From the NCBI RefSeq assembly GCF_003334355.1, contig NZ_QOWP01000002.1: a stretch of DNA of 64,000 bases; one strand, written 5' to 3'. The notes below the pieces were generated by a model, which had not been told where the DNA came from, searched no databases, and saw nothing but the letters and a program-made list of their open reading frames with translations. Below, piece by piece: positions 53,746 through 54,017 of the stretch (position 1 is its first letter; the number at the start of each line of letters is the position of its first letter). The position numbers and the translations under genes are program-made. The DNA comes from Escherichia coli. Its GTDB lineage: Bacteria > Pseudomonadota > Gammaproteobacteria > Enterobacterales > Enterobacteriaceae.

Positions 53746-53852
53746 TGATAGCCTCCGTGGCCCGTGGTCTTATTTATGATTAACAGCCTGATTCAGTGAG
53801 AGAACCTGCCGTTTCTTGAGTTGCCGCGATGTTAAGAAAACATTCATAAATT

Positions 53853-53874
53853 AAATGTGAATTGCCGCACACAT
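53853..53874. promoter_or_regulatory. CRP-binding site in the glpTQ/glpACB divergent control region
   Basis: aaaTGTGAattgccGCACAcat matches the CRP consensus TGTGA-N6-TCACA with one mismatch. Confidence 0.55.
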
Positions 53875-54017
53875 TATTAAATAAGATTTACAAAATGTTC
53901 AAAATGACGCATAAAATCACGTTTCACTTTCGAATTATGAGCGAATATGCGCGAAATCAAACAATTCATGTTTTTACTATGGCTAAATGGTAAAAAACGA
54001 ACTTCAGAGGGATAACA

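Follow-up and report, generated by a model that had tools for sequence, protein, structure and literature searches.

How does a single spacer control the divergent glpTQ and glpACB operons of Escherichia coli, and where in it does each regulator bind? We addressed this question in a window of 64 kb (the whole stretch of E. coli DNA analysed, 64,000 nucleotides), in which positions 53746-54017 form a 272-bp glpT/glpA spacer lying exactly between two divergent open reading frames of the ORF list. A 601-bp query over this spacer showed 100% identity to 11 complete E. coli genomes and was present in 5,420 of 5,426 genomes, and the RefSeq annotation of the matched genomes gives glpT and glpA as the flanking genes. 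These exact limits and the identity to annotated E. coli DNA bear out an earlier note, made from the sequence alone, that had taken the region for a divergent glpTQ/glpACB control region. The locus is the K-12 glpTQ-glpACB region studied by Larson, Cantwell & van Loo-Bhattacharya (1992) and Yang, Gerhardt & Larson (1997), with which it shares the flanking genes, the CRP site, the operator layout and the IHF site. It is identical to that of K-12 MG1655 at 271 of 272 bases, the sole difference being position 53913 (A here, G in K-12). Nearly all E. coli have G, and among 5,249 complete genomes only 11 carry the exact 71 bp around the A allele. This base is the outermost one of the GlpR operator at -60..-41 and the centre of a CRP/FNR-like half-site; the A raises the consensus score of the operator from 13/20 to 14/20, and we expect it to have no functional effect.

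To follow conservation we fetched 70 related loci via the GlpA N-terminus, 46 of which had the divergent glpT-glpA arrangement, with spacers that measured 249-273 bp in most cases and reached 342 and 375 bp in two; the alignment was then cut down to 21 enterobacterial lineages with <88% identity. An Rfam scan of positions 53000-54600 yielded no RNA family match. In one genome, NZ_CM132954.1 (E. coli strain 361), the match to the glpT-glpA query is broken in two by an IS1A element, which may leave glpT, through which fosfomycin is taken up, inactive or deregulated. Scans for the three regulators that the earlier note had proposed to search for, CRP, GlpR and FNR, returned a CRP core matching 9/10 positions, a best GlpR operator of 15/20 and an FNR-like site of 7/10, which we consider in turn together with the other features of the region (Table 1).

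Table 1 Features of the glpT-glpA control region in window coordinates, with the evidence for each. Operator positions relative to the glpA start follow the layout of Larson et al. 1992 as quoted in PMC3050690.
Feature	Position	Strand	Basis
glpT CDS, sn-glycerol-3-phosphate:phosphate antiporter	52387..53745	-	ORF list and RefSeq annotation of identical E. coli DNA
glpT 5' leader, 77 nt, up to the start of transcription at 53822 (minus-strand A)	53746..53822	-	Mendoza-Vargas 2009
IHF site I, +15..+51 of glpT	53772..53808	-	Yang 1997 as quoted in PMC3050690; core match
glpT -10 hexamer TAACAT	53829..53834	-	Mendoza-Vargas 2009 box; block GCGATGTTAA conserved across lineages
CRP site 1, core TGTGA-N6-GCACA at 53856-53871	53853..53874		Consensus scan, conservation, DNase I footprint
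GlpR operator -60..-41, AATGTTCAAA ATGACGCATA, 14/20	53894..53913		Consensus scan and fit to the quoted layout
Candidate second CRP/FNR-family site	53903..53924		Conserved block AATCACGTTTCA; putative assignment
GlpR operator -28..-9, ACTTTCGAAT TATGAGCGAA, weak, 10/20	53926..53945		Fit to the quoted layout; highly conserved
GlpR operator -8..+12, TATGCGCGAA ATCAAACAAT, 15/20	53946..53965		Consensus scan and fit to the quoted layout
FNR-like site ATGCG-CGAA-ATCAA, centre 53953.5	53947..53960		Footprint in PMC5352689; overlaps the -8..+12 operator
Putative classical glpA start P1	53954	+	Fit to the quoted operator layout; possible -10 GAATAT at 53943-48
Extended -10-like element TGgCTAAAT (TGGCTAAAT), hexamer CTAAAT at 53983-88	53980..53988	+	Conservation; putative promoter function
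GlpR operator +33..+52, AATGGTAAAA AACGAACTTC, 14/20	53986..54005		Scan and fit to the quoted layout; right half AACGAAC conserved
glpA ribosome-binding site GAGGG (54007-11) and ATG (54018-20)	54007..54020	+	Sequence
glpA CDS, anaerobic glycerol-3-phosphate dehydrogenase subunit A	54018..55646	+	ORF list and RefSeq annotation of identical E. coli DNA

Putative sites for GlpR lie toward glpA. We searched for them with a 20-bp operator consensus, WATGTTCGWT.AWCGAACATW (half-site WATGTTCGWT), which is matched at 20/20 by TATGTTCGATAACGAACATT, a sequence just 5' to the start codon of MG1655 glpD that we take to be a glpD operator. The sole 15/20 match in the 64-kb window falls at 53946-53965, and 2 of the 22 window-wide matches of 14/20 also fall in the spacer (53894-53913 and 53986-54005), where ~0.1 would be expected in 272 bp. 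Scores at these three best positions stay high throughout the 21 lineages, with a mean of 15.3 and up to 17/20 in other genera at 53946-65. A scan for GlpR half-sites only was too unspecific to discriminate, and a generic scan for sigma-70 promoters and terminators gave chance-level matches only. As quoted in PMC3050690, Larson et al. 1992 located GlpR sites at -60..-41, -28..-9, -8..+12 and +33..+52 of glpACB; the start-to-start spacing of this quoted layout (32, 20 and 40 bp) is that of the three best 20-mers if +1 is position 53954. With the start set there the layout scores 53/80, the best of ~64,000 placements (next best 43; mean 23.5, sd 4.1; z = 7.2), and no placement with a glpA start within 53975-54011 fitted the operators as quoted. 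From this fit we infer the exact window coordinates of the four operators (AATGTTCAAAATGACGCATG, ACTTTCGAATTATGAGCGAA, TATGCGCGAAATCAAACAAT and AATGGTAAAAAACGAACTTC in full) and a glpA start at 53954, an A at MG1655 2,352,583. The glpT start at 53822 and this putative glpA start are 132 bp apart. This distance agrees with the separation that the abstract of the 1992 Larson work reportedly gives. The -28..-9 and -8..+12 operators are contiguous and in phase, an arrangement that would allow cooperative GlpR binding.

The glpD and glpFK regions carry the same type of 20-bp palindromic GlpR operator in adjacent arrays. At glpD, the perfect TATGTTCGATAACGAACATT is directly followed by a second 20-mer, TATGAGCTTTAACGAAAGTG, whose TATGAGC variant is also present here at 53936. 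Compared with those regions, the glpT-glpA operators are weaker (10-15/20); they extend across 112 bp, interrupted by gaps of 12 and 20 bp, and the two promoters that they serve are divergent, that of glpT having no overlapping operator. Two weak GlpR-like 20-mers also occur within the glpT coding sequence (53497-516 and 53464-83), scoring ~11-12/20 across the 21 lineages over a background of 5.7 +/- 1.8, with somewhat raised third-codon-position conservation. They could be internal operators involved in looping; they are weak candidates, and we make no claim for them. As a by-product, the operator scan also revealed a 20-mer, TAGGTTGGATAAGGCGGTTA, repeated identically at 6099, 6212 and 6325 within a tandem repeat of 113-bp period (6099-6344).

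The same operators account for the repeated CGAA(T)ATG-like motifs that had been noticed by eye nearer glpA. There are indeed three of them (CGAATTATG at 53931-39, CGAATATG at 53942-49 and CGAAATC at 53952-58), and they are not random: on both strands of the 64-kb window this is the only place where CGAA recurs three times at intervals of 10-11 bp, with 0.055 such triples expected from simulations. All three lie inside the -28..-9 and -8..+12 operators of the quoted layout, with CGAATTATG and the start of CGAATATG in the former. The suggestion that they are tandem GlpR half-sites was thus right as to their location inside two adjacent operators and wrong as to the register, as the motif spans half-site junctions. 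In fact, CGAA(T)ATG is an out-of-register view in which the last bases of one half-site (...CGAA) are read together with the first bases of the following one (TATG...). Rather than one cluster, the layout as quoted comprises four operators, including the overlooked ones at 53894-53913 and 53986-54005.

The third CGAA repeat also belongs to a region protected by another regulator. Kurabayashi et al. 2017 (PMC5352689) reported that FNR D154A protects 70 bp upstream of the CRP site and named the motif TTGATTTCGCGCAT, which is the reverse complement of 53947-53960. This FNR-like site, compared with TTGAT-N4-ATCAA, has three mismatches in E. coli, all in the left half; its score ranges from 7 to 9/10 across the 21 lineages and its ATCAA half is invariant. 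It coincides with the strongest GlpR operator (53946-65) and, relative to the classical start at 53954, lies over +1; it would be near -41.5 only if a start at ~53995 exists. In vivo, Myers et al. 2013 (Tables S5, S7 and S11) detected no glpT/glpA FNR ChIP peak in the wild type on glucose; the peak appeared solely in a strain without hns and stpA, and under glucose conditions this was also the only strain in which glpABC responded to oxygen. This pattern implies H-NS silencing of the AT-rich spacer in glucose medium, and the FNR data fit occlusion of the spacer under repressing conditions.

Conservation downstream of the FNR-like site suggests where such a start might be. The element TGGCTAAAT is invariant in 18 of the 21 lineages, whereas the 14 bp upstream of it are variable in sequence and free of indels, and the distance from the centre of the FNR-like site down to the start of the CTAAAT hexamer of this element is constant at 29.5 bp. 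The arrangement has the geometry of a class II FNR promoter, with a predicted start at ~53995 (~2,352,624 in MG1655). Moreover, ATCAAACA is invariant in all 21 lineages, and CGAACA, the version favoured by GlpR alone, occurs in none of them. We tentatively propose, as a possibility we rate somewhat below even, that glpACB has a second, conserved FNR-dependent class II promoter, formed by the ATCAA half-site and TGgCTAAAT and starting 41 bp beyond the classical +1, at ~53995; the -8..+12 operator would then compete with FNR, and the '+33..+52' site would be a core operator placed over the anaerobic -10 and +1. This proposal may already be present in some database. The E. coli sequence TACTAT (53975-80) was considered as a glpA -10 and rejected, as it is not conserved across lineages.

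Taken further, the same observations could mean that the CGAA neighbourhood functions chiefly as the core of a glpA promoter dependent on FNR, with an FNR dimer at 53953.5, TGgCTAAAT as -10 and a start at ~53995, and that GlpR binding there is secondary. The FNR D154A footprint that covers the site and names its motif, the FNR-like score maintained across lineages, the invariance of ATCAAACA without any CGAACA, and the conservation of TGGCTAAAT at a fixed distance across variable sequence all point in this direction. However, no other 20-mer in 64 kb matches the GlpR consensus as well as the one at 53946-65, whose score rises to 17/20 in other genera, and the published operator layout, as quoted, fits uniquely at the same place. 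No glpA start-site data, at 53995 or at any other position, were found in Kim 2012, Federowicz 2014, Thomason 2015 or Mendoza-Vargas 2009. This reading is also compatible with GlpR binding, and a repressor site overlapping an activator site is the simplest account of the region. We regard a mainly FNR-dedicated function as plausible, though less likely than not, and prefer the overlap of a GlpR operator with an FNR site.

On the glpT side of the spacer, the near-consensus CRP site of the earlier note (TGTGAattgccGCACA / TGTGAATTGCCGCACA at 53856-53871, centre 53863.5) could be substantiated. It matches 9/10 positions of the core (TGTGA-N6-TCACA, the spacer being 6 bp long) and 14/22 of the full CRP consensus. 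Across the 64-kb window its core match alone is unexceptional, as cores with at most one mismatch number 3 against 1.8 expected, or ~0.008 expected per 272 bp. The case for the site is therefore made by conservation and not by the core match alone: in the 21 lineages the columns of the TGTGA and GCACA half-sites are at least 90% conserved and the six spacer columns 0-50%, and the 53856-71 position is the only one in the alignment with a conserved CRP-like score. It also lies inside a published footprint, since the 25 bp protected by cAMP-CRP against DNase I contain AATGTGTGCGGCAATTCACATT (Kurabayashi et al. 2017, PMC5352689), the reverse complement of 53854-53875, and thus hold the exact 22-mer. 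The same study found that glpT expression is lost in crp and cyaA mutants. A GlpR-like 20-mer at 53854-73 was discarded as a cross-match to the CRP site, both motifs sharing ATGT...ACAT.

5'RACE and 454 sequencing placed the start of glpT at -77 relative to the ATG, the position of the known glpTp, and its -10 box was given as ttttCTTAACATcgcg / CTTAACAT (Mendoza-Vargas 2009 and its supplement); the numbering of Kurabayashi 2017 implies a +1 ~2 bp away from it. Because this mapped start, 53822, puts the CRP centre at -41.5, the site is in class II activator position and belongs to the glpT promoter. The earlier placement of the site in the centre of the region is accordingly correct in that it lies between the operons and inexact as to the midpoint, from which it is 18 bp to the left. 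The IHF site quoted for the glpT leader is consistent with the same start. As cited in PMC3050690, Yang et al. 1997 located IHF sites at +15..+51 and +193..+227 of glpT, and a perfect IHF core, AATCAGGCTGTTA (consensus WATCARNNNNTTR), runs on the minus strand from 53793 to 53781, that is, +30..+42, inside the first quoted region. Since the perfect core falls in the region quoted for IHF, the mapping of the glpT start receives independent support. Cores of this kind number 10 in the whole 64-kb window, and site I is conserved within Escherichia only. An 11-nt direct repeat (TGAGTTGCCGC / TGAATTGCCGC) was also observed at 53817-53827 and 53858-53868, 41 bp apart, with one copy over the glpT +1 and the other within the CRP site; it may be due to chance.

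Like class II CRP promoters of the galP1 type, glpT has a CRP centre at -41.5 that replaces the -35 and a strict CRP dependence. Unlike them, its second regulator would act remotely, and a CRP/FNR-family half-site is found 50 bp further upstream. This candidate second site, centred at 53913.5, is exactly 50 bp from CRP site 1 and at ~-40.5 of the putative glpA start. Only its right half, AATCACG(T), is good, the core score being 5/10, and it sits at the edge of the 70-bp FNR footprint (PMC5352689).

It might also be thought that the single CRP site at 53856-71 activates both operons, as a class II site for glpT and as a class I site for glpA. Its centre, 41.5 bp from the glpT start, is ~90.5 bp from the putative glpA start, a helical-face-compatible class I distance, and both glpA and glpT are CRP targets in Genomic SELEX. 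Nevertheless, reviews report several CRP sites in the glpT-glpA spacer and glpA need not use this one, so that we consider a shared role unlikely and retain the assignment of the site to glpT. Finally, that all these matches are functionless chance resemblances in an AT-rich spacer can be practically discarded: the CRP core is not enriched in the window and single GlpR half-site scans discriminate poorly, but chance is refuted by the published footprints covering the sites and by the conservation of half-site patterns across genera, together with the unique fit of the operator layout as quoted and a CGAA triple that is unique in the 64-kb window.

We are highly confident that the region controls the divergent glpTQ and glpACB operons of E. 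coli and that it integrates four signals, among them glycerol-3-phosphate, oxygen and nucleoid proteins. As to how it works, cAMP-CRP bound at the class II position recruits RNA polymerase to glpT, which possesses a usable -10 (TAACAT) and no real -35, and this recruitment to a promoter without a real -35 makes glpT expression CRP-dependent. GlpR would fill four 20-bp operators grouped toward glpA, two adjacent ones covering the classical glpA -10 and +1 and thus probably blocking glpACB directly. No operator overlaps the glpT promoter, the nearest being ~70-90 bp upstream; the repression of glpTQ would consequently be remote, aided by IHF bending in the glpT leader at the site quoted from Yang et al. 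Looping by GlpR, which reviews describe, is what we infer from secondary descriptions and from how Larson and Yang titled their papers. Glycerol-3-phosphate is known from the literature to release GlpR. FNR, protecting ~70 bp over the operator cluster, adds anaerobic activation, and competition between FNR and GlpR is to be expected where the FNR-like site and the strongest operator are one. IHF also binds the spacer, as H-NS probably does.

The control region is already known biology, as the earlier note had acknowledged: footprints of it date back to 1992, and few E. coli control regions carry as much annotation, RegulonDB 8.5 listing 21 sites of five factors at glpTQ. A literature search with sequence strings of the spacer returned the Kurabayashi paper and a primer list only. 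The published footprints, some of them as quoted in later work, place the CRP and GlpR sites at no other coordinates, so the comparison by which the note could have been overturned leaves it standing. To its by-eye calls, which were sound, the present analysis adds the FNR-protected region over the strongest operator, the IHF site in the glpT leader and the second CRP/FNR-like half-site, and it gives exact window coordinates for each published element. The conserved candidate FNR-dependent second promoter of glpA is one testable refinement. Since glpT is an entry route of fosfomycin, the control exerted at this spacer by CRP, FNR and GlpR affects susceptibility to this drug (PMC5352689 and reviews).
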